From Chiloscyllium plagiosum (taxonomy: Eukaryota), in contig NC_057719.1 in the NCBI RefSeq assembly GCF_004010195.1, forward strand, positions 6,782,846-6,834,571: a stretch of 51,726 bases of DNA, in the 5' to 3' direction. This document shows positions 113 through 46,667 of the stretch, one piece after another (position 1 is the stretch's first letter; the number at the start of each line of letters is the position of its first letter). Under the pieces are notes generated by a model, which did no database searches, was not told where the DNA came from, and was given only the letters and a program-made list of their open reading frames with translations. Position numbers and translations under genes: made by a program.

Positions 113-242
113 CATTCCTGAAGAAGGGCTTATGCCCGAAACGTCGATTCTCCTGTTCCTTGGATGCTGCCTGACCTGCTGCGCTTTTCCAGCAACACAT
201 TTTCAGCTCTGATCTCCAGCATCTGCAGTCCTCACTTTCTCC
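113..242 (+). mobile_element. Mini Penelope-like terminal element, family A (about 130 bp, hammerhead core at 5' end)
   Basis: attcCTGAAGAaGGGCttatGCCCGAAAcgtc...ctcactttctcc, near-identical to copies at 12034 and 25498; flanked by direct repeat cattcctga (113-121, 242-250). Confidence 0.8.
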
Positions 243-6573: not shown

Positions 6574-6716
6574 AAAGTTAAAAATCACACAACACCAGGT
6601 TATAGTCCAACAGGTTTAATTGGAAGCACACTTCCAATTAAACCTGTTGGACTATAACCTGGTGTTGTGTGATTTTTAACTTTGTACACCCCAGTCCAAC
6701 ACCGGCACCTCCAAAT
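6574..6716. mobile_element. Palindromic PLE family B mini-insertion
   Basis: Perfect 53-bp inverted arms (6574-6626 and 6631-6683), tail of about 33 nt on the right arm, 15-bp duplication cagcacctaataaag (6563-6577, 6717-6731). Confidence 0.85.
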
Positions 6717-7602: not shown

Positions 7603-8445
7603 AAACTTCATTGTTAGAGTTGAAAGTGGGAGGAGAAACCAGAAAAGGAATCATAACATAGAAGTTACACCTAGGTTATCCAGAATTAATGTTAGGGAGC
7701 ACTTTCTCAAATCATAAGGCTGTGGAAATCTGGAACTCCCTCCCACAAAGGGCTATTGAGTTTGACAGCCAGTTGAAAATTTTGAAACCTTGGTTTGGGG
7801 ATTAAGATACAGATCAGGTACGATCTAATTGTGGCTAAAGATGAAAGGTTGAAATGTATTAGATGAAACGTAATGGTTTGGAGGATTATGCTAGTGTAGA
7901 CACAGAAATGTTCTCATTTGTGAAAATAATTCCCATTTGTGAACATAAGAGACAAGAAATATGCAAATAAACCCAGTAGAGAATTAAAGAGAAATTATTT
8001 TACTGTTTAAAATATGGATTTTGCTACTACATGGTGTAATTGAGCTAAATAGTACCTCGGTACTTATGGAGAAACTAGATCTGTACACAAGGAAGAAAGA
8101 AACACATGGAGACAGTGGTAGAGCGTGAGGAGGTTTGCAAACATCATAAACACCATCATAAATCAACTAGATCAAATGGCCTCTTACTGTGCAATAAACT
8201 CTATGTAACATGCTCGAACGCCTCCTCAACCTATATTTCCAATGGAGAGAAGCCAATTCTTCCTCTGCCATTCATGGGGCATAACCCTGAGGGAACATAT
8301 TCCCAGCATTGTCACCTCACGGCCAAGCACACAGGTCTAACAATTGAAAGTGTATTGATTTTGGAGGGTTTTTTAAAATCAAGGTTGATTAAATCATCAT
8401 TAGTGTTCAATAACAACACGTCGAAAAATAACACTTTGCAGAAAT

Positions 8446-9262
8446 TATGTGGAGGTGTTAGTGTTGGACCGGAGTGCACTAAGTTAAAAATTACAACACC
8501 AGGTTATAATCCAACAGGTTTATTTGAAAGTACTTGCTTTCGGAGCACTGCTCCTTCATCAGGTAGTGTGGAGCAGGATCAGAAGACATAGAATTTATAG
8601 CAAAAGATCACAGTGCCATGCATGCAGCTGATACAATACATTGAACAAATCTAGATTGCTGTTAAGTCTTTCATCTTTTAGAATGGTTGCAGGTTTCAGT
8701 TTATTAATATGTAAATCCCAGAACTTCTTTCAAGTCAGATTCTCTGGATAAGATTTTATAAAAAAAGGTGATATCTCAGCTGAGACAATGCATTAAAGTT
8801 GCAAGGTTAGAGTCTGTAGGCATCCCAATCTTGAGTTAGACTGGTTCTATTTCCAAAGTAGGAATTTATAAAATGTTACAAGCATTGACTGCCTGCAGAT
8901 TGTGTGCTTTTGAACAAAATAGAATGTATCCGCAATTTCAATTCTGCAAATGCAAATTCACCGCAGAGACTTAGATGCGTGCATGAGAGAGAGAAAGACA
9001 GAGAGAGAGAAAGAAAAGAGTATTTGTGTGAGAGAGCATTTGCGTGCATGTGAGAGTGTGTGTTTGCGTGTGTGCACCTCTTGGGGGGGGGGGTGTGGCT
9101 GAGAGAGCGTGTGTATGAGAGAAAGTCTGCGTGAGTGTGCGAGTCCATAAGAATACACATGTATGTGTATGTGTGTGTTTGAGAGTGTACAGTGTAGTGG
9201 GGTCACCTGTAGTGTGACATGAACCCAAGGTCCCGGTTGAGGCCATCCTCATGGATTCGGTA
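8446..9262 (-). mobile_element. PLE family B 3' region (ORF C-terminus, CA-rich UTR, hammerhead-like core, tail)
   Basis: ORF end HEDGLNRDLGFMSHYR; inverted homolog of 10550-11314; core at about 8531-8566. Confidence 0.8.
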
Positions 9263-9278
9263 CCATGTAAGCTAGCCT

Positions 9279-9355
9279 TTCCTGATGAAGGGCTTATGCC
9301 CGAAACGTTGATTCTCCTGCTCCTCGGATGCTGCCTGACCTGCTATGCTTTTTCT
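9279..9355 (+). mobile_element. PLE family A fragment
   Basis: ttcCTGATGAaGGGCttatGCCCGAAAcgttgattctcc. Confidence 0.75.
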
Positions 9356-10400: not shown

Positions 10401-11314
10401 CCAGATGGACAGTTGTGTTCCCTCCCAGTCTGGGAACATTTCAGTGATCAGGGACATTTGGCCTTGGATCTTTGGGTGACCATCCTCCAAGGCGGACTTT
10501 GGGATACGCAACACCACACACTGGCCAACCTGAGGCTGATAGCTAAGTTCAGACCCCATGAAGATGGCCTCAACTGGGACCTTGGGTTCATGTCATAATA
10601 TAGGTGACCCCACTACACTATGCACTCTCACATACATACACTTACACACTCACACAGACCCTCTCTCATACACACACACACACCTCCCACACTCTCTCCC
10701 ATGCACACACCGTGTCGCAGGCTTATAGTCTATCCCCCTTGCACTTTACCAAGCACGTGCACACACACAGTCTCTCACACGCACACTCACATGCATGCAC
10801 ACACACACTCTCTCTCTCATGCATACATGCAAATATAAGTCTATGGAGTGAATTTGTATTTGTTGAATATTTGCAGATACATTCTATTTTGCTCAAAAAG
10901 CACACAATCTGCAGGCAGTCAATCCATGTAATATTTTATAAGTTCCTACTTTGGAAATAGAACCAGTATGACTCAAGATTGGTATACATATAGACTCTAA
11001 CCTCACACCTTTAATGTACCGTCTCAGCTGAGATGTCACCTGTTTTTATAAAATCTAAGTTATCTTGTGAATGTGACTTGAAAGAAGTTTTGGGATTTAC
11101 ATATTAATATACCGAAAACTGCAACACATTCTAAAAGACAAAGACTTAACAGCAATCTAGGTTTGTTCAATACAGTATATCAAATCAGTTGCATGACACT
11201 GTAAAATCTTTTGCGATAAATTCTGTGTCTTATGATCCTGCTCCACAGATACCTGATAAAGAAGCAGTGCTCCGAAAGCTATTGTTTCCAAATGAACCCG
11301 TTGGACTATAACCT
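10401..11314 (+). mobile_element. PLE family B 3' region
   Basis: ORF 10395-10598 SLPVWEHFS...LIAKFRPHEDGLNWDLGFMS (C-terminal end of GIY-YIG region); ends in a degenerate hammerhead core and ttggactataacct. Confidence 0.8.
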
Positions 11315-12290
11315 TGATTTGGAGATACTGGTGTTGGACTGGGATGTACAAAGTTAAAAATCACAGAACACCAGGTTTAATTGGAAGCACTAACTTTCGG
11401 AGCGCTGTTCCTTCATCAGGTGGTTGTGAAGTACACAGTTGTAAGACACAGAATTTATAGCTAAAGCTTACAGTGTGATGTAACTGAAATTATACATTGA
11501 AAAATACCTTGATTGTTTATTAAGTCTCTCATCTGTTAGAATGACCATTTAGTTTCACTTCTTTCATATGTAAATCACAAAACTTTTTTAAAAAGTTACA
11601 TTCTCAGGTTAACTGTAACAATTGGTGTCAGTCAGATAAGATGTTGAAGGTGTTAGCCCCCTCTGTTCCCTGTCTGTGCCAATGTAACTCTGCAAGTACA
11701 AATTCACCCCACAAACGTATATGTGTATGTGTGTTTTTGTGTGTGTCCCCGTCTGGGGTAGGGGATTGAGAGTGTGAGAGAGTGTGTATATGTGAGTGTA
11801 AAGTGTCTAAGTCTGTGAGAGAATCATGTATGTGTGTGGGAGTGTGTATAGTGCACTGGTGGTCACCTGTAGTGTGGCATGAACCCAAGGTGCCGGTTGA
11901 GGCCCTCCCTATGGGTACAGAACTTAGCTATCAGCCTCTGCTTGGCCACTTTTCCCTGCTGCCTGTCCTGAAGTCCGGCCTTGGAGGATGGTCACCCGAA
12001 GATCTGAGGTCGATTGTCCTGGACCACTGAAGTATTCCTGAAGAAGGGCTCATGCCCGAAACGTCGATTCTCCTGCTCCTTGGATGCTGCCTGACCTGCT
12101 GCACTTTTCCAGCAACACATTTTCAGCTCTGATCTCCAGCATCTACAGTCCTCACTTTCTCCACTGAAGTGTTCCCCAACTGGGAGGGAACACTTCTGTC
12201 TGCTGATTGTTGTGCGGTGCCCATTCATCCATTGCCTTAGCCTTTGCTCAGTTTCACCAATACACCATGCCTCAGGGCATTCTTGCCTGC
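11315..12290 (-). mobile_element. PLE family B 3' region, interrupted by a family A insert
   Basis: Tail, core at about 11388-11423, ORF fragment MNGHRTTISRQKCSLPVGEHFS. Confidence 0.8.
12034..12162 (+). mobile_element. Mini PLE family A insert
   Basis: Full 129-bp unit; TSD ccactgaagt (12024-12033, 12161-12170). Confidence 0.85.
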
Positions 12291-12297
12291 AGCATCC

Positions 12298-13009
12298 TTA
12301 CTTGCAGAGTTACATTGTACTTTGCTCAAAAACTGCAAGAATGCATGAGAGACTCTGTTAACTCACTTTTTAGATTAGAATCAGTCTAAACATTATGGCA
12401 CAGACAGGGAACGCAGGGGGCTAACACCTTCAACATCTTAACATCTTATCTGGCTGTCATCAATTGTTACAGTTAACCTGAGAAGGTAACTTTTAAGGAG
12501 AAAGTGAGGTCTGCAGATGCTGGAGATCAAAGTTGAAACTTTATTGCTGGAACAGCACAGCAGGTCAGGCAGCATCCAGGGAACAGGAGATTCGACGTTT
12601 CGGGCACAGGCCCTTCTTCAGGAATTCTTTAGGCATTCCTGAAGAAGGGCCTGTGCCCGAAACGTCGAATCTCCTGTTCCCTGGATGCTGCCTGACCTGC
12701 TGTGCTGTTCCAGCAATAAAGTTTCAACCAAGGTAACTTTTAAAGAAGTTTTGTGATTTACATATGAAAGAAGTGAAACTATCATGGTCATTCTAACACG
12801 AGAGACTTAACAAACAATCAAGGTATTTTACATCACACTGTAAACTTTTGCTATAAATTCTCTCTTACAATTGTATACTCCACAACTACCTGATGAAGGA
12901 GCGGCGCTCAGAAAGCTAGTGCTTCCAGTTAAACCTGTTGGACTACAACCTGGTGTTGTGTGATTTTTAACTTTGCCCACCCCAGACCATCACCAGCTCC
13001 TCCACATCA
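12298..13009 (+). mobile_element. PLE family B 3' region, inverted partner of 11315-11700, abutting the CpG island
   Basis: Core CTGATGAaGGAGCggcGCTCaGAAAgcta at 12890-12918, then tail ending ccacatca. Confidence 0.8.
12497..12728. mobile_element. Palindromic PLE family A insertion (young)
   Basis: Near-perfect arms of about 94 bp around tctttaggc; 35-nt tail on the left arm; TSD aaggtaacttttaa (12483-12496, 12730-12743). Confidence 0.88.
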
Positions 13010-13420
13010 CGTGTGCACCCTACGCAGCCTGGAGCGGCACCTGAGGACGTCATGCGTCATGGCGTAGGGACGCGCCGTGCGTGCGTAAACCAGCGCCAAG
13101 ATGGCGGCGGGGACCAGCCATTGGTTGCTGTTACGCTATCAGGCGCCATTCCTACCGCCCGAATTCCTCCCGCCGGACCGAAGGGCCTGGAGGCCGCTCT
13201 GTGGGCGTCAGCAGGTCGAAAAACACCGACTTTACCTCAGGAATTTATTGGCCGGGCCGAGCTGCGGGGGGTTGGCTGGAGGGGGAGGCATTTCAGCGGC
13301 TGTCGTTGTTCGTTCGAGGGGCCCATGGGGACCTGAGGCGGAGGGAGGTAATGCTCGGCCGGATTGTCTCCTTGGCGACGGCCAGGGAGATCGTGGCGTT
13401 ATTGAGCGATGTTTCCCCCC
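13010..13420. promoter_or_regulatory. CpG-island promoter of an unidentified gene
   Basis: Sharp GC and CpG enrichment; CRE-like gacgtca (13046-13052) and tgcgtca; YY1 motif CAAGATGGCGGC (13097-13108); two reverse CCAAT boxes (13120, 13247); repeat-free sequence downstream. Confidence 0.8.
13345..13353 (+). other. Candidate first-exon splice donor GAG|GTAATG
   Basis: Donor-like site near the 3' edge of the CpG island, followed by a transition to T-rich intron-like sequence. Confidence 0.45.
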
Positions 13421-16400
13421 CTCCATCCCTTTTTTTTAAATAAGCACTTTTTATTCCAGGGGGTGGGGAAAAACCACGAGCGCTGGGGGAAAAAAAATCC
13501 CTTGTGTTCGTCAACAGCCATCTTTCCATGACATGAAGTGTAAGTAGACAAAAACCCAACTGTATCTTTATGTATTACATTTCTGCTGCTGCTTCACTCG
13601 AGAACATTGTTTCCTATACATTACAACTTATTTCTCTTCCACTTCCCCCTCCCTGACAAAGTGAAATTGCAAACTCGGCAAAAGATTAGGGAGGCTTGAA
13701 TAGTTTCGCTTGTTTATTTTTGTCCTATTTTAAAAGTCCATCTCGAACTTTTGTGTGTACATCTACATACATATAGATAAATATTATGTATTTATAACGT
13801 GGTGTTGTCCTTGAAATACAGTCCAATGTGTCTTTGTCCTCACCGCTTTTATTTATGCTAAATTTTGGTGTTTGGTTGGAACCTGGACTCCTGACATTGC
13901 AGCTAAAGTTTGGTTTGAATGCACCAAGTGGGCGAAATTTTGATTTTTTTTAAAGTGTTTGGGGTTGTGATTATCATTGTTCTAACTGAAAGCGACTTGA
14001 AATGTTTGTATATTGTATCAAATTTAAATGCAACTCTCCTCTCATTGTCCTACCCAAGTTTTATACTCAACTGTCTTAATAAAGTAAATTTTCTTTTAAG
14101 AAAAGGAGCTGTACTTCTACCCTTTCCGGCCAGCCTGCTGCTCAATGAGTGTTTGTTTTTCTCTTTAATGGGTAATTGTGTCCGTCTACACTTGTTTCCC
14201 CCTGCTGCGCACATTGGTTCTTTAAGTTGTTTCTTTTTATTTGCAGATTTTGTTTTGGAACATTCGCCCTTTCCCTCTTAAGATGTTGCTGTTTTCATGT
14301 AATGTCATTGTATTGCATTGTCATCCTCTGCTATAGGGAGCAGTGTTAGGCAACACCGCAGTGTCCTCAACCTCTGTCCTCTGGTAGGATAATGGTCTTT
14401 ACCTTGTGATGGTGAAAGCAAATCTCAAATTCTCGTATCAAGGATTTTTCTTGTTTAAATCCCATTTGATAAACATACTGAATTCTCCTGTTAACTTCAC
14501 TTTTTTTTAGGCTTATCTCAGCGTAAGTGTAACTTGTAGAAATGGGAATGTGTAAATGTCGCGGCCTTTCCCTAAAAGAAGCCTGTTTGGTTTTGGTCAT
14601 GCCTGAGCTTTGCTCAAATTGGTCGTTTCAGCAGATAGCATTTAATCCAAGGTGACAAGGCAACTGTTTCCAAGGGTAGACAACTCTGGAGAAAGCCAAA
14701 GCCATGGACCTGCCACTTGACCTTTTGACAGTTAGGTGGTCGAATGAAAAGATGCACCAGCAATTAACCCAGATTATGAAGTTCGCACACATCTTCGTGA
14801 TTTACACAGTCCGTTTGAAGCAATGCACAACGGCGTCTTTCAGTCTCGCTGCGCTGCAGATGTTGTCTATAAGTTCAGGACTGCAAAACTGGATGAACTA
14901 AGTCGATGCGTTTAATGTCGCTCGTCCATTCGTCGAAAACAACGCTTGTGCTATCTATGAAAGACTGTCGATGCTTCAGCAGTTTCGCACTCTTCCAAAA
15001 ATAGAATGCAAGGGATTGTGGGCAGGAGTCTTGTGATTTTTTCTCTCTCTGTATAATGTAAACCAGATGCTATGTGCGGAGGAATTGCCACGCAGCTCAA
15101 ACCGTGTACGATTAAATCACTTACGCCCACTTCGGAGGCACGGGATCTGATTACTGACTACCGACCTTAAATTGGATGTTTGTTTTGAAACAATCAATGA
15201 ACGGATTTCGGCGGCTGAGTTAAATAGGACAGAAGGACAAAGATGCAAAGGACAAAGTTGATTTTTTTTCTTGTTATGGCATGCTAACAAATACGTTTGC
15301 AAAACGAATACTGGAAACAACTTAGTCTAATGTATTCATTTACAATGATATTTGAGGCGTGGTCCTACAAAGTAACTGCCCGATAAGGCGTTTTTTTTTG
15401 TTATATATTGCTCCATATATTCAAATGCGTTTTCAACGCAAGGTATTAGACCTTCCTAAAGATACATTGTTATTTAAAAGTGACAATCGTGCGCTTCAAA
15501 TCAATTACACACAAGGAATTCCAAGTTAACTCATCCTTTTATGTACGGGGACCGCAGTTGGAAGCATTCGGCTATTGGATTGCTGTAATGTTTGAAAATA
15601 AACCTTATCTCATTGAAATAATTGTCCATTACACAATCTTTTCGTGTTTATATGTTCTGACATGTATAGACTCATTAACAAAATGGCCTTGAATTGCACT
15701 GATTCTTTATTTTAATGAAACGGTTATATTTTTAAAACTTTTGATTTTCATAATTGAAGTTTTAATGTATTTGGGGATCAGCAGAATATGTTACTACAAT
15801 AATATATTGTATGAATTCTGGTTGCATAGGGAGTGTTACAGATAGAAAAAGTTATATTCAGTGCAAAATTTTTCTATAGATTTTCAACAATTTTCTTAAG
15901 GTCTGATCATGTTACCCCATAAAGATAATTGGCTCTGCACTGGTGAAATACTCATTAAGTATTTTAACTTGATCTAATAAATGTGTGTTAAGTACTATTA
16001 AGCTCCAAAGACTGACTGCTTCACATGGAGGGATTAGTTATTACCACATACTTATCCTTAATGTAACTTGCTTCATGTGACATAATCCAACCTCTCAAAT
16101 TTCAAACTGTTTGCATACAAATTGTAATGAAAAGAGGGAATAAAAGAGCGCTGATCTGTGTTAGTTACATGAATTGATACAGTAATGAGGGTGTATGTTC
16201 ATACTAGTGATTGAACTCTGCTTTGCCAAAAGAGAAATTAATCACTGATATAGCGTAATCCTTTGATTATAGATTAGAAAATGCCTTGATGACTTTCTGC
16301 ATTTGAACATTAAATGCATGTTTTTATTGTATGTAGCCCAAATAATCAACTGGTTAGACGAAACTGGTATCTTTACATTCTTAAAGATTAAATTATACAC

Positions 16401-17303
16401 CTAGTTTACTATACACTATAGTTAAAATTTATCCAGTAAATAAAGCTCCACTTGCTGAATCTTCAGCTACAAGTTGTAACACTAAATTCATTCTGGTTGA
16501 CCTTTTCTGGATTTTCTCTATTAAGGAACTAAACTGGACACTATCCTGTATGCAACCACAAGTATTGCATTCATAACTTATTGAATTCTACTAGCAGTTC
16601 AACACATGCTGATAAGGCTTGCAACTCTAGTTTACGGCCTTTAAAATTCAGCATCTGTATATGTGACTTTTTTGTTTCAACCCTCGCCTATAAGGAGGTA
16701 ACCCATACATGATGTACATATGCCTGAAATTGCAGCACTAATCCTTCATTTATCCACAATGATGGATATCTGCAAGATACATAGTGTGTCTACATCAGGT
16801 TGTATCCTGTCTGTTGCGTTGCTTTTGAGCCCAGACACTCTGATAAGCCATCATCATACTGGTCATTACATTTTGATCCTTGTTAGTTCCTTATTGTAAT
16901 TTCATTTTTATGTAATTTCTACTATGGATTACTAGCTATTATATAATTGATTCTTTTTTTAAATTTGCATTTTTGCCCTTGCTACTCTTTTCCCAGTTGA
17001 GCTTCTTGTGAAGCAATTGTCATCAAACTCCACAGTCAGATGTGTAATAATCTTGCAAAATCAAACAGTGGATGTTGGAAATCTGAAATAAAAACAAGGT
17101 GTTAGCTATGCTGGCATATGTGGAATAATAATTTGTTAGTCAGAACTGCAGAGATGTGTTTATCCACAGCCACCAGTTTTAAATATTAACTTGCATAGAA
17201 TCAAAGAATGGTTACTATGCATTTTGCTGATCATGCCTATGTCACAGACATTTTGCTTGTGCCATACCTCCGCCCTATCTTGGCAAGACTCTGCAGATAA
17301 TTA

Positions 17304-17530
17304 GTTGAAACTTTATTGCTGGAACAGCACAGCAGGTCAGGCAGCATCCAGGGAACAGGAGATTCGACGTTTCGGGCACAGGCCCTTCTTCAGGAATCCT
17401 GATTCCTGAAGAAGGGCCTGTGCCCGAAACGTCGAATCTCCTGTTCCGTGGATGCTGCCTGACCTGCTGTGCTGTTCCAGCAATAAAGTTTCAACTTTGA
17501 TCTCCAGCATCTGCAGACCTCACTTTCTCC
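17304..17530. mobile_element. Palindromic PLE family A insertion (young)
   Basis: Arms of about 95 bp around a 2-nt spacer; 35-nt tail on the right arm; TSD ctctgcagataatta (17289-17303, 17530-17544). Confidence 0.88.
17401..17438 (+). ncRNA. Minimal type I hammerhead ribozyme motif (mirror copy on minus strand at 17361-17398)
   Basis: Stem I gattc/gaatc, CTGAAGA plus extra A, stem II GGGC-ctgt-GCCC, GAAA, palindromic ACGT stem III, GUC triplet (predicted cut after 17433). Confidence 0.75.
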
Positions 17531-17717
17531 TCTGCAGATAATTATCTGATTTTCTTTAAAATGCAATTGAATCTCCCTCTTATAATCTCAGGCAGTGCAT
17601 TCCAGTTCTTAACCACATGTTGTCTAAACGGGTGTTTTTATGCCCCTTCTGGTTCTCCAATCATATTATTGTGCACTGCTTAATATTTCTACTGTTGGGA
17701 ACAGTTACTCCCTACCT

Positions 17718-18270
17718 AGAATAAAACACAGATGCTGGGGATCTGAAACAAAAACAGAAATCACTGGAAAATGCAACAGGTCTGGCAGCACCGATAGGAA
17801 GAAAGTAGAGTTAACATTTTGAGATCGGTAACTCCTCTTCAGAACTGTTAGGATTGGCAAAACCTGTATTTATGCATAAGTGTGTATGTGTTTGCATGTG
17901 GGCTGGGGCAGTGGGGTGGATGGTGTTGTGTTGAAGGGAATAGCTGAGTGGAAAGATGGAAATAGAATCCACAGAAGAAAGGAGTAGGTAAATAGAGAGA
18001 ATGCATAGCAGGACAGGACAGAAAAAACGCTAATGGTGAGAAAATGGATTCATTGAGCTGAATGCAGCCCATATAAGATGGTAATGGACCGAGGAGTATG
18101 TGAGAATGCATGACTACTAAAATGACCCATGTCAAAACAAGACTGCATGTGTTTAAAAAAAAAACATGGAAGGATGGAATCAGGCTCTAGAGTTATTGAA
18201 CTCAATGCTGAATTCTAGGGTCCCTAAGCGGAAATGAAATATTCTTCGAGCTTGCGCTGAGGCTTGCTGC
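17718..18270 (-). mobile_element. Older PLE 3' region (family related to A)
   Basis: Minus strand RKLEE..FRLGTL..SIEFNN-like ORF end; degenerate ctgaaga..aaaa core near 17810-17846. Confidence 0.55.
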
Positions 18271-18351
18271 TTACCTACTTAATCTGTCCAGACCCCATTG
18301 ATTGAGCATAGCTGTCAAATTCTCTTCATCTTCCTTTCCAAAGATAACCCA

Positions 18352-19918
18352 GTTTTGGATGTAAGTTTGCTCGCTGAGCTGGAAGGTTCATTTCCAGATG
18401 TTTTGTCACCCTATTAGGTAACATCTTCAGTGGACCTCCAGGAAAAGCACTGCTGATGATTCCTGTTTTTATATGTTTGGGTTTCTTTGAGTTGGTGATG
18501 TCATTTCCTGTTTTTCTCAGGGGTTGGTAGATGGGGTCTAACTCGATGTGTTTGTTGATGAGAATTTCGGTTGGATTGCCATGCTTCTAGGAATTTTCGT
18601 GCGTGTCTCTGTTTTGCTTGCCTTAGGATGGGTGTATTGACCCAGTCGAAGTGGTGTCCTTCCTCATTCGTATGTAAGGATACTAGTGAGAGAGGGTCAT
18701 GTCGTTTTGTGGCTAGTTGATGTTCGTGTATCCTGGTGGCTAGTCTTCTGCCTGTTTGTCCAATGTAGTGTTTGTTACAATCCTTGCACAGTAGTTTGTA
18801 AATGACATTAGCTTTGCTTGTTGTCTGTATAGGGTCTTTCAAGTTCATTATCTGGTGTTTTAGTGTGTTGGTGGGCTTCTGGGCTACCATGATGCCAAGG
18901 GGTCTGAGTCGTCTGGCAGTCATTTCTGAGATGTCTTTGATGTAGGGCAGAGTGGCTAGGATTTCTGGACATGTTTTGTCTGCTTGTTTGGGTTTGTTGC
19001 TGAGAAATTGGCAGACTTTGTTCATAGGGTACCCATTCTTTTTGAATACACGGTATAGGTGATTTTTCTCTGCTTTGCGAAGTTCCTCTGTGCCGCAGTG
19101 TGTGTGTTGGCTCGTTGAAATAATGTTCTGATGCAGCTTCGTTTATGGATGTTGGGATGTTGCTTCTGTAGTTCAGTATTTGGTCCGTATGTGGCATTTT
19201 CCTGTAGACACTAGTTTGAAGTTCTCCATTGGCTGTTTGCTCTACTGTGACATCTAGGACTGGCAGTTTGTTGTTTTCCTCCGCTTTAGCGAATTTTATG
19301 CCAGTAAGGGTATTATTGATGGTCTTGAAGGTTTCCTCTAATTTGTTTCGTTTAGTGATGACAAAGGTCATCACCCACCAACACACTAAAACAGCAGCTA
19401 ATGAACTTGAAAGACCCTGTACAAAGAACAAGCAAAACTAATATCATTTACAAAATACCATGCAAGAACTGTAACAAACACTACATTGGGCCACCAGGAT
19501 ACATGAACATCAACTAGCCACAAAAAGACATGACCCACTCTCACTAGTATCTTTACATACAGATGAGGAAGGACACCACTTTGACTGGGCCAACACATCC
19601 ATCCTTGGACAAGTCAAACAGAGACACGCACGAGAATTCCTAGAAGCATGGCATTCCAACCGGAACACACTCAACAAACTTAGAGTTAGACCCCATCTAC
19701 AGCACCCTGAGAAAAAGAACAGGAAATGACATCACCAATCCAAAGAAACCCAAACATTTGAATAGAAAGCAGGAATCATCAGCAGTGCGTTGCCCAGAGG
19801 CCCGCTGAAGATGTTACCTAGCAGGGTAATGAAATGTCTGGAAATGAACCTACTAGCTCAGTGAGCAAACCTACTTCCAGAACTTCAACCTGAGCTACAA
19901 ATCTTCTCAAAATTCGCT
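18352..19918. mobile_element. PLE family C insertion: about 1 kb inverted arm (18352-19367, minus) plus direct arm (19368-19918, plus)
   Basis: GIY-YIG motif NVIYKLLCKDCNKHYIGQTGRRLATRIHEH and RT thumb LPVLDVTV..TSVYRK; degenerate hammerhead cores at about 18392-18431 and 19802-19841; TSD aacccagttt (18346-18355, 19922-19931). Confidence 0.88.
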
Positions 19919-20101
19919 ATAAACCCAGTTTCTCCAATTTAATCCTTACATCAAGTTTCTAATGTCTAGAACTGCTCTAGTAAATCTTTTCTGCATTTTT
20001 ATTAATACCTTCACATTATATGGGTTGCATTCAGCTCAGTTAACCCATTTTGTGGCTGTGTGGTCCCCAGAATTACACACATTTCCAGTTGTGCACATCA
20101 A

Positions 20102-20456: not shown

Positions 20457-20526
20457 GTTGTTGCAGTTGAGGTCAAACCAGAGATTTAAGGTTAATTGTG
20501 ACTTCCATGCTTTTATACACTGCATT

Positions 20527-20736
20527 GAGTGTGTGGTGCTGGCAAAGCACAGCAGGTCAGGCAGCATCTGAGGAGCTGGAGAATTGAAAGTTCGGGCATG
20601 AGCCCTTCATCAGGAGTGGGTTTTCCCTGATGAAATGTCTATTCTCCTGCTCCTTGGAAGCTGCCTGACCTGCTGTGCCTTTCCAGCACCACACTCTCAA
20701 CTCTGATCTCCAGCACCAGCAGTCCTCACTTTCTCC
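20527..20736. mobile_element. Palindromic PLE family A insertion (older)
   Basis: Diverged inverted arms, right-hand tail, TSD ttttatacact (20511-20521, 20738-20748). Confidence 0.78.
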
Positions 20737-21014
20737 TTTTTATACACTCTGCCTCTATTTATAAAGCACAAGATTCAGTATACTCATTAGCTCTATTCTT
20801 GACCACTTATGTCATCAATGGTTTGAGCACACATGCCCCAGATGTCTGTAAATTTGTATTCACTTTACACTTTTCTCAGTGTATCACTTAATGCTTTGCA
20901 ATGTTTCATGAGCCATATGTCTGTCCCCTCTAATAGTCTGTATGTTTGAGTGATGAGCTGACAAAGTGCAATTACAGCAGGCTTGTGCAATTACAGCAGG
21001 TAAAAGGCATCGGA

Positions 21015-21483: not shown

Positions 21484-21542
21484 ACAAAAGAACTGAACAG
21501 AAACTGTTGTGTAAGGATTGGTGCTAATTTACCTTGGGCAAT

Positions 21543-21679
21543 ATGATGTGGAGGTGTTAGTGTTAGACTGGGATGCACAAAGTTAAAAATCTCACAATAG
21601 GTAACGAGCAGCGCTTTGAAAGCTTGTACTTTTCAAATAAACCTGTTGGACTGTAACCTGGTGTTGTGATTTTAACTTT
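21543..21679. mobile_element. Palindromic PLE family B mini-insertion (degraded)
   Basis: aaagttaaaaatc / gattttaacttt arms, left tail, TSD tttaccttggg (21528-21538, 21677-21687). Confidence 0.72.
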
Positions 21680-25375: not shown

Positions 25376-25607
25376 GAGCTGGAAATGTGTTGCTGGAAAA
25401 GCGCAGCAGGTCAGGCAGCATCCAGGGAACAGGAGAATCGACGTTTCGGGCATAAGCCCTTCTTCAGGAAGCCCTTCATTCCTGAAGAAGGGCTTATGCC
25501 CGAAACGTCGATTCTCCTGTTCCCTGGATGCTGCCTGACCTGCTGCGCTTTTCCAGCAACACATTTTCAGCTCTGATCTCCAGCATCTGCAGACCTCACT
25601 TTCTCCT
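25376..25607. mobile_element. Palindromic PLE family A insertion (young)
   Basis: Near-identical inverted arms, right-hand tail, TSD tcagcaagag (25369-25378, 25616-25625). Confidence 0.87.
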
Positions 25608-25893
25608 CAACCATTTCAGCAAGAGGCCCAGCAATCATTTCTCTAGCTTCCCACAGAGTTCTAGGGGTACACCTGATCAGGTCCTGGGAATTTATCCACT
25701 TCTGTGTTTCAAGACATCCAGCACTACTTCCTCTGTAATATGGACATTTTTTGAGATGTCACCATCTATTTCCCAACATTCTATATCTTCCACCTCTTTT
25801 TCCACAGTAAACTCTGATGCTAAATACTCGTTTAGTATCTTCCCCAATCTCCTGCGGCTCCACACAAAGGCCGCCTTACTGATCTTTGAGGGG

Positions 25894-25954
25894 ATGGAAA
25901 TGTGTTGCTGGAAAAGCGCAGCAGGTCAGGCAGCATCTAGGGAACAGGAGAATC
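25894..25954 (-). mobile_element. Single-arm PLE family A fragment starting at the predicted hammerhead cleavage site
   Basis: Reverse complement starts gattctcctgttccc; TSD tgagggg (25887-25893, 25955-25961). Confidence 0.75.
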
Positions 25955-26590: not shown

Positions 26591-26789
26591 AAGTTAAAAA
26601 TCTCAACACCAGGTTATAATCCAACAGGTTTAATTGGAAGCACTAGCTTTCGGAGTGTCGCTCCTTCATCAGGTGGAGCAGTGCTCCGACAGCTGGTGTG
26701 CTTCCAGTTGAACCTGTTGGACTATAACCTGGTGGTGTGATTTTTAACTTTGTATACCCCAGTTCAACACTGGCATCTCCAAATCAAGG
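26591..26789. mobile_element. Palindromic PLE family B mini-insertion
   Basis: Inverted arms, right-hand tail, TSD ctcaccatctaa (26581-26592, 26790-26801). Confidence 0.83.
26641..26675 (-). ncRNA. Minimal hammerhead ribozyme motif, family B
   Basis: Minus strand cac-CTGATGA-a-GGAG-cgaca-CTCC-GAAA-gcta^gtg (stem I cac/gtg, palindromic AGCT stem III). Confidence 0.7.
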
Positions 26790-34588: not shown

Positions 34589-34818
34589 GGCAGAAATGGG
34601 TACTGCAGATGCTTGAGATCAGAGTCAAGATTAGAGTGGTGCTGGAAAAGCACAGCAGGTCAGGCAGCATCCGGAAGAGCAGGAAAATCGATGTTTCAGG
34701 CAAAAGCCCTTCATCAGGAATGACCCTGATGAAGGACTTTTGCAAGAAATGTTGATTTTACTGCTCCTGGATGCTGCATGACTGCTGTGCTTTTCCAGCA
34801 CCACTCTAATCTTGACTC
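34589..34818. mobile_element. Palindromic PLE family A-related insertion
   Basis: Inverted arms, left tail, TSD tgcactccatgg (34579-34590, 34820-34831). Confidence 0.8.
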
Positions 34819-35309
34819 ATGCACTCCATGGGCCAAATGGCCTGCTTCCACATTAGGGATTATATGTGACTTGGAAGTAAAGTTGAAGATATCCAATTTG
34901 AGGCAAAGCAGAAAATGGTACTGATGTAATAATCAGTCTACACGGAAGAGTTGTTGAAGTGGCCAGAGAAGGATGAGAACAAGGAATATTACATATTTTC
35001 CATAAAAATACAGGCATAGCTAAGACCTGTAAAAACTTCTTATTTGAAAGAAGAAAGATAATAAGGTGGAGGAAGGTGAATGGTAACTGGTTTGAACTCT
35101 GTTCAAGGAAAAAGTGAAGACCCCCTCAGATTGTCTTGGTGGAGACTAGAGATGTAGAGAGATTGGTGAAGAAATGGCTAGGACCAGGAAATTGGAAACT
35201 AAAAAGTGGAGGTCATCAGAAGAGTCACAGATCTTGTTAGGGAGTCATTCTGAAAAGGAAGGAAAATTATGTCAAAATTAGAAGGACTGGCTTTGTGTGT
35301 GGGAAATCA

Positions 35310-36648
35310 TGTCTTCCCAGCCAGATTGTTGTTGTTTTTTCTTGAAGCAATGATAAATTGATGAAGGCAGAGCAGTAGCTGTTGCCTGAACACTTCAGGA
35401 ATGCATTTGACAAGGTTCCATATGGGAGCTAGCTGATTGGATACAAAATTGGCTTGAAGGTGGTGATAGAGTTTGCTTTTTGAACTGGAGGCCTGTGACC
35501 AAAATGTGCCATAAGAATCAGTGCTGGGTGCACTGCTCATTCATTATATAAATGATTTGGACATGAATAAAGGAGGCACGGTTAATAAGTTTGCAGTGGG
35601 CAGTGATGAAGATTCTCTGGGTACAATAAGACCTTGTTTGGATGGGTCGGGGGCCAAGGAGTGGCAGATGGACTTTAATTTAGAAAGATGCGATGTTGCA
35701 TTTTGGTAAGGCAAGACTTGTACAGTTAATGGTAGGTCCCTGGGGAGTGTTGGTGAACAAAGGGGTTCAGGTGTATAGTTCCTTACAAGTGGAATCGCAG
35801 GTAGACAGTGGTGAAGAAGGCGTTTGGCGTGCTTGCCTTCATTGGCACTGCCCCATCATGACTAATGTTGGACTGAGATCGACCAGATCAGATGTCGTAT
35901 GACACCAGGTTAAAGTCCAACAGGTTTATTTAAAATCACAAGCTTTTGAAACGCTGCCCCTTTGTCAGGTGAAGTGACATTCATTTGACGAAGGGTCACA
36001 CTTCGAAAGCTTGTGATTTCAAATAAATCTGTTGGACTATAACCTGGTGTTGTGACGTCTGACCTTCATTGGTCATAACCTCCAAACTCCTACACTCAAT
36101 GTTATGGGCCTGTACAGGACATCAGTGAGATCACTTTTGAAATGCTGCATACAATTTTGGTCACCCTTCTATAGGAAGGATGTCAGAGGAGAAAAGACTT
36201 TCAAGGATCTTGCTGGAACTGGATGGTTGAGTTGTAGGGAGAGGCTGAATAGGCTGGACTTTATTCCCTGGAGTGTCAGAGGCTGAGGGGTGACGTTATA
36301 AAATTATAAGGGTATGGATAGGGTGAATAGCCAAAGTCTTTTTCCGAGGATAGGAGAATTCAAAACTAGAGGGCAGAGGTTTAAGATGAGCAGGGAAAGA
36401 TATAAAAAGGACCTGAGGAGTAATTTTTTTCATGCAGTGGATGGTGCATTTATGGAATGAGCTGCCGGATGAAGTAGTGGAGGTAGATACAATTATAACA
36501 CTTTAAAAGGCGTCTGGATGGGTATATGAATAGGAAACGTTTAGAGGGACATTGGCTAAATGCTGGCAAATAGGATTCTGTCACGTTGGGATATCTGGTC
36601 CATGCATATAAGTTGGACTGATGAATCTGCTTTTGTGTTGTATGACTT
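35310..36648 (+). mobile_element. Old CR1 3' half
   Basis: YINDLD..VNKFA, EWQMDFN, CIQFWSPFYRKDV, WNELP; CR1 tail. Confidence 0.8.
35846..36062. mobile_element. Palindromic PLE family D (B-related) insertion
   Basis: Arms acaccaggttaaagtccaacagg / ctgttggactataacctggtgt, degenerate tgacgaa..cgaaagctt cores, TSD ccttcattgg (35836-35845, 36063-36072). Confidence 0.75.
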
Positions 36649-38114: not shown

Positions 38115-38350
38115 GAGCCGACATTCTTTGCGTAGCTCTCAGGGAACAGAACTTCAGATACTCCTATTTACAGATGTTTTCTAATCAACCTTTTCAGAGA
38201 TGCTATTACATCCCTCTTGAGCAGGTAGGATTTGAATATAGTTCTTGCTGGCTCAGAGGTAGGGTTACTACTACTACACCATAAGACTCCCACTCTTTCT
38301 GTCGGCTCCCTGATTGGACCAAGTTGATAGCTGCAGGGAACTCATTCTTG
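38115..38350 (-). repeat. Inverted copy of part of the LTR-like element at 38604-39017
   Basis: Reverse complement aligns with 38630-38935 (e.g. ctgaaaaggttgattagaaaacatctgtaaataggagt). Confidence 0.85.
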
Positions 38351-38603
38351 CATAATAGGAGCAATGCCAGGTGTGAGTGGCAATCCTACAACCAGCAGAT
38401 TAGATCAAAGTTCTACAGCCTTCCCACATTTGTTGAATAGTGATGTGCAATTCAACAGCTACAGAATGTGGTTGGACAGACAGCTCCATCCTTGAGAACA
38501 TGTTAGTGTTTAAAAAAAATCTCCAGTTCATTGTCTATTCTGGTTTGCGGTCTCATATTTGTCTGTATGGTACTGAGTATCCATGGGTCCAAGTTGTCGT
38601 GAT

Positions 38604-39017
38604 TGTAACATGGTCGGCCAGGTGAACTTCATAGAATGGGTTCCCTGCAGCTATTAACTTGATCCAATCAGGGAGCCCTGGCTGACAGAGGAGTGGGGAC
38701 CTTTGATGTGAAGGGCACTGCTTGTTACTGGCCAGTTGGGTGTTTCTTTTCTTCCTGGTGGAAATAAAAAAAAAAGTGGGGCTCTTGTGGTGTAGTAGCA
38801 GTGTCCCTACCTCTGAGCTAGCAAGATCTATTTGCTCTAGAGGTGTGTAATAGCATGTCTGAAAAGGTTGATTAGAAAACATCTGTAAATAGGAGTCTCT
38901 GAAATTCTGTTCCCTGAGAGCTGCGCGGAGGATGCCAGACCAATGTCAAGTACTATGCACATGTAAATAAAGGCGATGGGACTTAGTGATGGAATAGTGA
39001 CCTCTGGAGTTATTTCA
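38604..39017 (+). mobile_element. Solo-LTR-like element (TG...CA) with internal tRNA-like and A-tailed inserts
   Basis: Starts tgtaaca, ends ttatttca, contains CCAAT and AATAAA; no TSD seen. Confidence 0.45.
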
Positions 39018-45502: not shown

Positions 45503-46444
45503 TGAATATGTATAGACTTTGGAACAGTTCCTGTGGATTAGGGTAGCTAATATAAGCCCACAATTTTTTTCAAGGGAAGTAAGTAGAGAGAAAATAGGGA
45601 ATGTAAGCCAGTTAGCCTGGCCATTGGTAATAGGAAAAATGCTAGAGTTAATTTTAAAGCAGAGCGCTTGAAAAGTAGTGACAGGATTGGACAGAGTGAG
45701 CTTAGGTTTATGAAATGGAAATAGTGTTTGACAAGTGTATTGCTATTTCTTGAGAATATGAATTGTTGTGTCAAGCAAGGGGAGCTAGTGGATATCATTT
45801 ACTTGGAGTTTGAGAAGGCTTTTTATACACTCCCCTATAAAAGATTAGCATGTCATTAAAGTGTATGTGATTTGGGTCAGTGTACTGACATGGGCTTTTT
45901 TCTGAGTGACAGCCATTGACGAACGGTGTACTGCAAAGGTGTTTGTTTGGACCTCAGTTAGTTACGATGCATTTAAAGATTTAGATGAAGAAACTAGGTG
46001 TAATATCTCCAATTTTGCAGGTGACACAAAGCTGAATGAAAGGGTGAACTATGAGGAGGATACAAAGTTGCTTCACTGTGGTTTGAATGTTGAATGAGTG
46101 AGCAAATGCATGGCCAATGAAGTGTAATGTAGCTAACTGTGAGGATATTCACGTTGGTAACAAAAGCAGGAAGGTGGATTATCTGAATGCTAATTGATCA
46201 GGAAAGGGACCTTGGTTCCTTGTACATGCATGGCTGCAAGTAAGCATGCATGTGCAGTAGGCCATGAGAAAGGCAAATAGTATGTTGGCCTTCATAGCAA
46301 GAGGATTTGAGTACAGGAGCAAGAATGTCATGCTGCATTTGTACATGGCCTTAGTGAGCAGTTATGGCCCCCTTCTTTGAAGAAAAATGTTCTATATATG
46401 GAGGGAGTGCAATAAATGTTGATCAGACTGGTTCCTGGGATGGA

Positions 46445-46667
46445 GGAGAAAGTGAGGACTGCAGATGCTGGAGATCAGGGTTGAGTGTATAGCGCTGGAA
46501 ATGTGCAGCAGATCAGACAGTATCCGATAAACAGGAGTTTCGGGCATTAACCCTTCATTAGGAACCTTGATCCTGATGAAGGACTTATGTCCGAAACATA
46601 GATTCTCCTGCACTTCGAATGCTGCCTGACCTAATGTGCTTTTCCAGCACCATACACTCGATTCCGA
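46445..46667. mobile_element. Palindromic PLE family A insertion (older)
   Basis: Diverged inverted arms, left tail, TSD ttcctgggatg (46432-46442, 46668-46678). Confidence 0.78.

Follow-up and report, generated by a model that had tools for sequence, protein, structure and literature searches.

Insertions of Penelope-like elements (PLEs) have been described with an inverted terminal copy, a 31-bp tail and a target-site duplication (TSD) of 8–10 bp (Arkhipova et al., 2013, PMC3846280), with a one-ended tail of 30–40 bp (Craig et al., 2021, PMC8557442) and with a 34-bp repeat (PMC2377424). The inverted partial terminal repeats and short 3' tail that the first-pass annotation of this DNA had taken as established for Penelope insertions are indeed published (PMC3846280; PMC8557442). 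For Poseidon PAc of Anolis carolinensis, nicking and extension occur on both target strands, two RT starts bound the tail in vitro, no difference in start site was seen between the strands, and a dimer is predicted (Frangieh et al., 2024, PMC11167929). The final steps of PLE integration are described as unresolved in both PMC11167929 and PMC8557442. Comparisons made here refer to the accessible parts of the sources cited.

The inserts that we describe lie in a window of shark DNA (the whole stretch analysed, 51,726 nt, to which all counts refer unless stated otherwise), which is vertebrate non-coding DNA with many decayed LINE and Penelope-like pieces. They are similar to endonuclease-bearing PLE insertions in having a head-to-head 5'-truncated copy, a one-ended tail of 30–40 bp, an outer TSD and a hammerhead in the terminal repeat, but differ in being mostly 138–237 bp long, non-coding and of very high copy depth (PMC3846280; PMC8557442), and their TSDs measure 10–15 bp compared with 8–10 bp in the rotifer examples. 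As in PAc, a minimal hammerhead lies upstream, and most arms here span the cut site, in keeping with the dispensability of ribozyme cleavage in PAc. However, PAc primes without homology, whereas 4 of 11 inner junctions here overlap the target by 2–4 nt, and PAc gave no reads ending at the ribozyme cut, whereas two arms here begin exactly at its predicted position; the accessible text on PAc draws no link from the two starts to two arms of one insertion (PMC11167929). Minimal PLE hammerheads have, by eye, the same core features (Cervera and De la Pena, 2014, PMC4209133), but the motifs here face opposite ways, so that no tandem dimer would arise on one strand. Non-LTR retrozymes, too, are short, carry a hammerhead, lack coding sequence and derive from PLE terminal repeats, but they are head-to-tail tandems (bioRxiv 10.64898/2026.07.22.740005), in contrast to the single or head-to-head, TSD-flanked arms seen here; no tandem array of hammerhead units was present among seven rows in the window. 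We found no description of shark mini-palindromes or of PLE twin priming in a literature search that had most subscription papers and repeat-database entries outside it, and the accessible part of Kojima 2018 (PMC5753468) holds nothing on hairpin-tail structure. The architecture is therefore mostly known, with the tail, the inverted arm, the TSD and two RT starts already published, while new here are the longer 5' reach of the tail-less arm (3/3 unequal pairs) and a stem enclosing the inner start in three unrelated families, the latter without covariation support.

One-tailed palindromes between target-site duplications

The insert at 12497 (12483–12743) displays the architecture in full, and its arms are 100% complementary across 94 nt:

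12483..12496, forward strand: left copy of the TSD, 14 bp, exact match; 4/4 paralogous host-repeat copies align to one copy
12497..12531, reverse strand: 35-nt tail of the long arm, family A, containing the 3' strand of the proposed stem
12532..12625, reverse strand: body of the long arm, with a minimal hammerhead motif at 12621–12594
12626..12634, no strand: centre spacer, 9 nt, unique to the locus
12635..12729, forward strand: tail-less arm (12635–12728) plus a foreign base at 12729, with a hammerhead motif at 12639–12666
12730..12743, forward strand: right copy of the TSD, 14 bp, exact match to the left copy

The centre spacer bears a likeness, by eye, to nearby arm sequence. By family, the 11 listed inserts comprise six of A, three of B, one of C (related to B) and one of D; the other ten, together with single arms and one exception, are as follows (no strand unless given):

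6578..6716: family B palindrome (6574), 15-bp TSD, tail right; predicted ribozyme cut site marks the start of the tail-less arm; 4-nt arm/TSD overlap
17304..17529: family A palindrome, 15-bp TSD, tail right; orthologous site empty in organism B
18356..19921: family D (Penelope/Poseidon-like) inverted insertion (18352), 10-bp TSD; tail-less arm of ~1020 nt with RT and GIY-YIG pieces, tailed arm of ~545 nt
20522..20737: older family A palindrome (20527), 11-bp TSD, tail right
21539..21676: family B palindrome (21543), 11-bp TSD, tail left; tail-less arm 60 nt longer on the 5' side
25379..25615: family A palindrome within a LINE fragment (25376), 10-bp exact TSD (13 with one mismatch), tail right
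26593..26789: family B palindrome (26591), 12-bp TSD, tail right; tail-less arm 10 nt longer on the 5' side
34591..34819: older family A palindrome (34589), 12-bp TSD, tail left
35846..36062: family C (related to B) palindrome, 10-bp TSD, tail left
46443..46667: older family A palindrome (46445), 11-bp TSD, tail left
114..242, forward strand: single family A arm, tailed; an 8-bp duplication overlaps the arm's 5' end
12034..12162, forward strand: single family A arm, tailed, with TSD, in a family B endonuclease-like region
25894..25954, reverse strand: single family A arm (25895), tail-less, 7-bp TSD; starts at the predicted ribozyme cut site
11315..13009: exception, two family B arms head to head, each with a tail, lacking a TSD and hosting the 12034 and 12497 inserts

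The first-pass annotation had counted about 11 inserts with TSDs of 10–15 bp, and exact TSDs were found in 11/11, with lengths, from 6574 to 46445 in the order above with 12497 second, of 15, 14, 15, 10, 11, 11, 10, 12, 12, 10 and 11 bp. These scores of 10–15 compare with a maximum of 7 among 110 mismatched end pairs and of 9 among 300 random end pairs, in a test with insert ends placed by eye and a slack of 8 nt. All TSD sequences differ, and their length varies over the same 10–15 bp. The tail is on a single arm, at one end only, in all 11, and the short arms of 12497 and 17304 end at the same base, as had been noted, with an ambiguity within 1 nt. The proposed offset of 33–35 nt between the arms holds in 7/11, but the others measure 32, 29–30, 36 and 39 nt, as read by hand with extra bases behind the tail removed first. 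Counted to the first TSD base the offset is 30–42 nt, and 29–39 nt if bases common to arm and TSD are assigned to the arm; it is thus a narrow window (29–42 nt, mostly 32–36) rather than one base. At the tail-less end, arm and TSD overlap by at least 2 nt in four of the 11 inserts (p 0.004–0.025).

A single architecture accounts for all listed inserts, but the window also contains the single arms 114, 12034 and 25895 and the two-tailed pair 11315–13009, and the MITE-like size ascribed to the inserts fails for 18352 (1566 bp), while most others span 138–237 bp without coding sequence. By self-search, the window contains 12 head-to-head pairs, of which 11 combine one tailed and one tail-less arm (p 0.003 under independent arm choice). 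The arms of the two-tailed pair are each other's best match at 89.8%, and the longest word shared by its flanks is 5; the pair interrupts a family B copy (10500–11314) at the terminal repeat. Centres are all different at the 10/10 loci printed.

Several neighbouring structures were recorded separately. The inverted pair 38122–38934 was excluded, having no TSD; there an element running from TG at ~38573 to CA at ~39017, solo-LTR-like, faces an inverted partial copy (38122–38348), and no TSD was found over 38122–39017. At 8444–9352, a tailed arm of family B and a 3'-truncated arm of family A are linked through a short inversion, with no TSD. The duplicated 8-bp target at 114–242 is identical to the element's own first bases, which suggests that this 5' joint formed by annealing. 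A GC- and CpG-rich, gene-start-like stretch (13010–13450) lies right beside a family B tail. No tRNA genes, and so no tRNA-SINE head, were found in the window, and weak ExoU_C, GAPES1 and DUF2250 Pfam rows on LINE fragments were dismissed as below cut-off.

Hammerhead arms and their coding relatives

A pattern scan detected hammerhead cores in arms of families A, B and D; followed outward from the centre, each arm starts at or inside the motif. The ctgt and ttat 'loops' of the first-pass annotation correspond to the helix II loop of a minimal hammerhead, whose core, by eye, has an extra base after position 9, a short helix II and four palindromic bases in place of helix III. Helix II is 87–96% paired, with two double changes in family A. 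Rfam returned nine matches, none of them a hammerhead, and a microRNA precursor was rejected given that the Rfam microRNA matches were weak, below the gathering score, and reflect hairpin shape.

Family D, which we take from its motifs to be Penelope/Poseidon-like, links these arms to coding sequence: the arms of 18352 contain RT and GIY-YIG pieces that are 77–83% identical to shark proteins having those domains (tblastn). The GIY-YIG match (E 0.0013) is below the curated cut-off, and RT followed by GIY-YIG in one frame occurs in family D only; RVT_1 was found in 4/4 relatives and a weak GIY-YIG in 3/4, and for one fragment the nearest relatives with a name are proteins of the zebra shark. Long arms of family B, presumably Neptune-like from its motifs, run by eye into endonuclease-like frames, with no Pfam match. 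Family C is related to B (z 7–11), while A, B and D have no similarity outside the ribozyme, the only part that A shares with B. In family A no arm is joined to coding sequence in the window, and its mobiliser is assumed. The arms are thus, as far as sequence can tell, hammerhead-bearing ends of PLEs, and we hold a PLE origin of the inserts to be nearly certain.

The helix I edge lies no more than ~4 nt from the start of most family A arms, and in 2/4 runs the loose ends contributed by other loci gather at this same base, 17397, among the matches listed. At 17397–17402, loose ends from other loci have a common upstream continuation, which in the window is not above chance (three matches; as many in 20/100 shuffles). 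This common continuation makes a longer parent of family A probable. The boundary at the shared 5' edge (TCATTCC) is, we presume, initiator-like, but a transcription start there gained no support: an RNA run had no pile-up of molecule starts or ends, and 117 reads crossed the edge. The single arm 25895 and the short arm of 6574 (6578–6629) both start exactly at the predicted ribozyme cut, hinting that cleaved RNA may sometimes be copied.

A single-event insertion and the probable route of integration

We aligned four public runs over 16500–18300, of which X14 derives from organism B and X1 and X5 from organism A. Runs X1 and X5 contain the junctions of the 17304 insert. In X14, contig 10 (443 bases) matches 17065–17288 and then 17530–17753, skipping 241 bases, that is, the 226-base insert and one 15-base TSD copy. 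The check proposed in the first-pass annotation, an empty orthologous site in a related species, thus succeeded at 17304, with both arms absent; given that the empty site has one TSD copy, the tail came in along with both arms and insertion itself created the TSD, and the claim that both arms arose in one event is confirmed for this insert only. Paralogous empty sites agree, as 4/4 copies of the 12497 host repeat align to a single TSD copy, as does 1/1 for 12034, while 0/3 LINE pieces aligned usefully for 25376. The shared subfamily-diagnostic bases of paired arms, on which that claim had rested, hold up in young inserts, but across 20 arms (18352 was left out of the alignments) the own partner is nearest for only eight, and for neither arm in 20527, 46445, 26591 and 21543; shared loop bases alone are therefore insufficient as proof of a single event.

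The best-supported loose ends cluster at 17529–17532 in 4/4 runs, and this massing implies that many loci share one fixed tail end. The inner end, the start of the tail-less arm, is absent from the best 24 of 1263 loose-end rows and its position was measured in this window only. Family A is very abundant in organisms A and B. In three runs the summed contig depth over 17293–17536 is ~100,000-fold the flank depth, which is not a copy count. Some centre joints have a depth of 100–370 versus 10–24 for unique flanks, and some centres recur or were re-amplified whole. A metagenome scan with the arm motif gave 17 loci, none matching over more than 30 nt, and no extra copies.

That the inserts are retrotransposition products and not DNA MITEs, as the first-pass annotation held, is borne out by the variable TSDs, differing centres, asymmetric ends, arms linked to RT and GIY-YIG, and the empty site. 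DNA-transposon MITEs with terminal inverted repeats would be small, palindromic and of very high copy depth, as these inserts are, and the multi-copy centre joints would suit them too; but TSDs vary in length and sequence, tail-side repeats are not terminal, centres differ at 10/10 loci, single arms occur, and the same ends are found on arms coding for RT and GIY-YIG, so that this reading is largely refuted and scarcely credible. Only slightly less improbable are two independent insertions at the same position, or gene conversion or recombination at a later stage. PLEs do nest here (12034 and 12497 within family B), and in older inserts an arm other than the partner is nearest; against this, one TSD brackets both arms in 11/11, the orthologous site of 17304 lacks either arm, and the arms of young inserts are 99–100% complementary.

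Twin priming is the route that we favour for these PLE inserts and consider probable. In L1 twin priming, a second target nick primes a second cDNA, resulting in an inversion between TSDs; L1 arms derive from separate RNA regions and the inner site varies, whereas here both arms copy the same RNA part and the inner site is nearly fixed. The element protein would nick both target strands 10–15 bp apart, producing the TSD, whose creation is shown by the empty site. From each target 3' end a cDNA would be copied off the terminal RNA of the element: priming at the outer start site would leave the tailed arm, and priming at an inner site ~35 nt further 5' the tail-less one, as the genomic ends suggest. 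Two primers, each using its own start site, would yield precisely the order TSD, tail-less inverted arm, tailed arm, TSD. Both cDNAs would run to or near the hammerhead 5' edge, probably an RNA end, and would be joined head to head via a few common or added bases, making a new centre each time. The near-strict one-tail rule probably reflects a single protein complex, perhaps working on one RNA, that employs each start site once. The fixed second priming point of the first-pass annotation fits within a few bases, but is not new, given the two RT starts seen in vitro (PMC11167929).

The alternative of fold-back or self-priming, in which one tail-primed cDNA folds over at its 3' end so that copying turns it into a hairpin, with the endonuclease or bound protein ending the second strand ~35 nt early and joining at the second nick, appears unlikely to us, although it would yield the one-tail rule directly. 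Self-priming is favoured in PMC3846280, and PMC8557442 ascribes the tail to endonuclease-mediated resolution. Tiny centres and the near-equal 5' starts of most family A pairs speak for it, the seven short pairs whose 5' starts are equal within ~3 nt fit it equally well, 20527 being unclear in this respect, and the short overlaps at the tail-less end are expected under it as well as from primer-template pairing. The unequal pairs tell against it: wherever the 5' reach differs by at least 10 nt, the tail-less arm is longer (3/3; ~500 nt in 18352, 60 in 21543 and 10 in 26591; direction alone p 0.125) and neither arm is contained in the other, which argues against a simple fold-back, whose copy must be a subset, unless later deletions intervened; such deletions at palindrome centres could also produce unequal reach. 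Fold-back is further disfavoured by RT starting at the tail's inner edge in vitro (PMC11167929) and by the tail-less single arm 25895 with its 7-bp TSD, which, like the tailed single arms 114 and 12034, shows a start used singly. Counting against twin priming are the 29–42 nt spread of the offset, the pair 11315–13009, two-tailed and without a TSD, the like start sites seen on the two strands in PMC11167929 and the multi-copy depth of some centre joints.

A possible stem around the inner start and its proposed meaning

In families A, B/C and D, a stem of 7–9 Watson-Crick bp has its 3' strand 9–12 nt into the tail and its 5' strand 27–48 nt before the inner start, which follows AAC in most families, 9–12 nt before the stem. 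It is clear in 10/16 tailed arms, the other six having a shorter or different best stem. Shuffle tests on one young copy per unrelated family gave p values of 0.12, 0.02 and 0.02 (combined 0.003), in a test picked after the stems had been seen, and three such stems in one register occurred in 0/2000 shuffled sets. Covariation within families was not found in A (no double change in eight pairs) and amounted to one double change in nine pairs in B/C; whole-structure scores were not above shuffles, and folding energies of single arms were no better than shuffles. The PAc template given in the methods of PMC11167929 holds, by eye, a 7-bp complementary pair at ORF bases 50–56/94–100, with AAC ~12 bases before the second strand, and this pair agrees with the stem if the tail ends at 111–118, an inferred assignment. 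An AC-rich stem loop is mentioned in PMC11167929, and part of the stem may already be in print in its figures.

Tentatively, and with more doubt than confidence, we propose that one PLE complex copies one RNA twice, with a conserved stem, its 3' strand in the tail, enclosing and positioning the inner start; the inner primer would pair over 1–4 bases and run first, and the outer would follow and displace it. If this were true, the tail would be a template-positioning element, and the one-tail rule, the fixed offset and the longer tail-less arm would all be accounted for. In telomerase, elements framing the template have a role comparable to that proposed for the tail.

As long as they go unrecognised, such abundant hairpins can easily be mistaken for MITEs or for precursors of microRNAs. 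Pairs that are short, young and bounded by TSDs, with empty orthologous sites, allow the closing steps of PLE integration to be tested on natural material, in which tail pairing, the longer-reaching arm and junction overlaps are counts that separate twin priming from fold-back.
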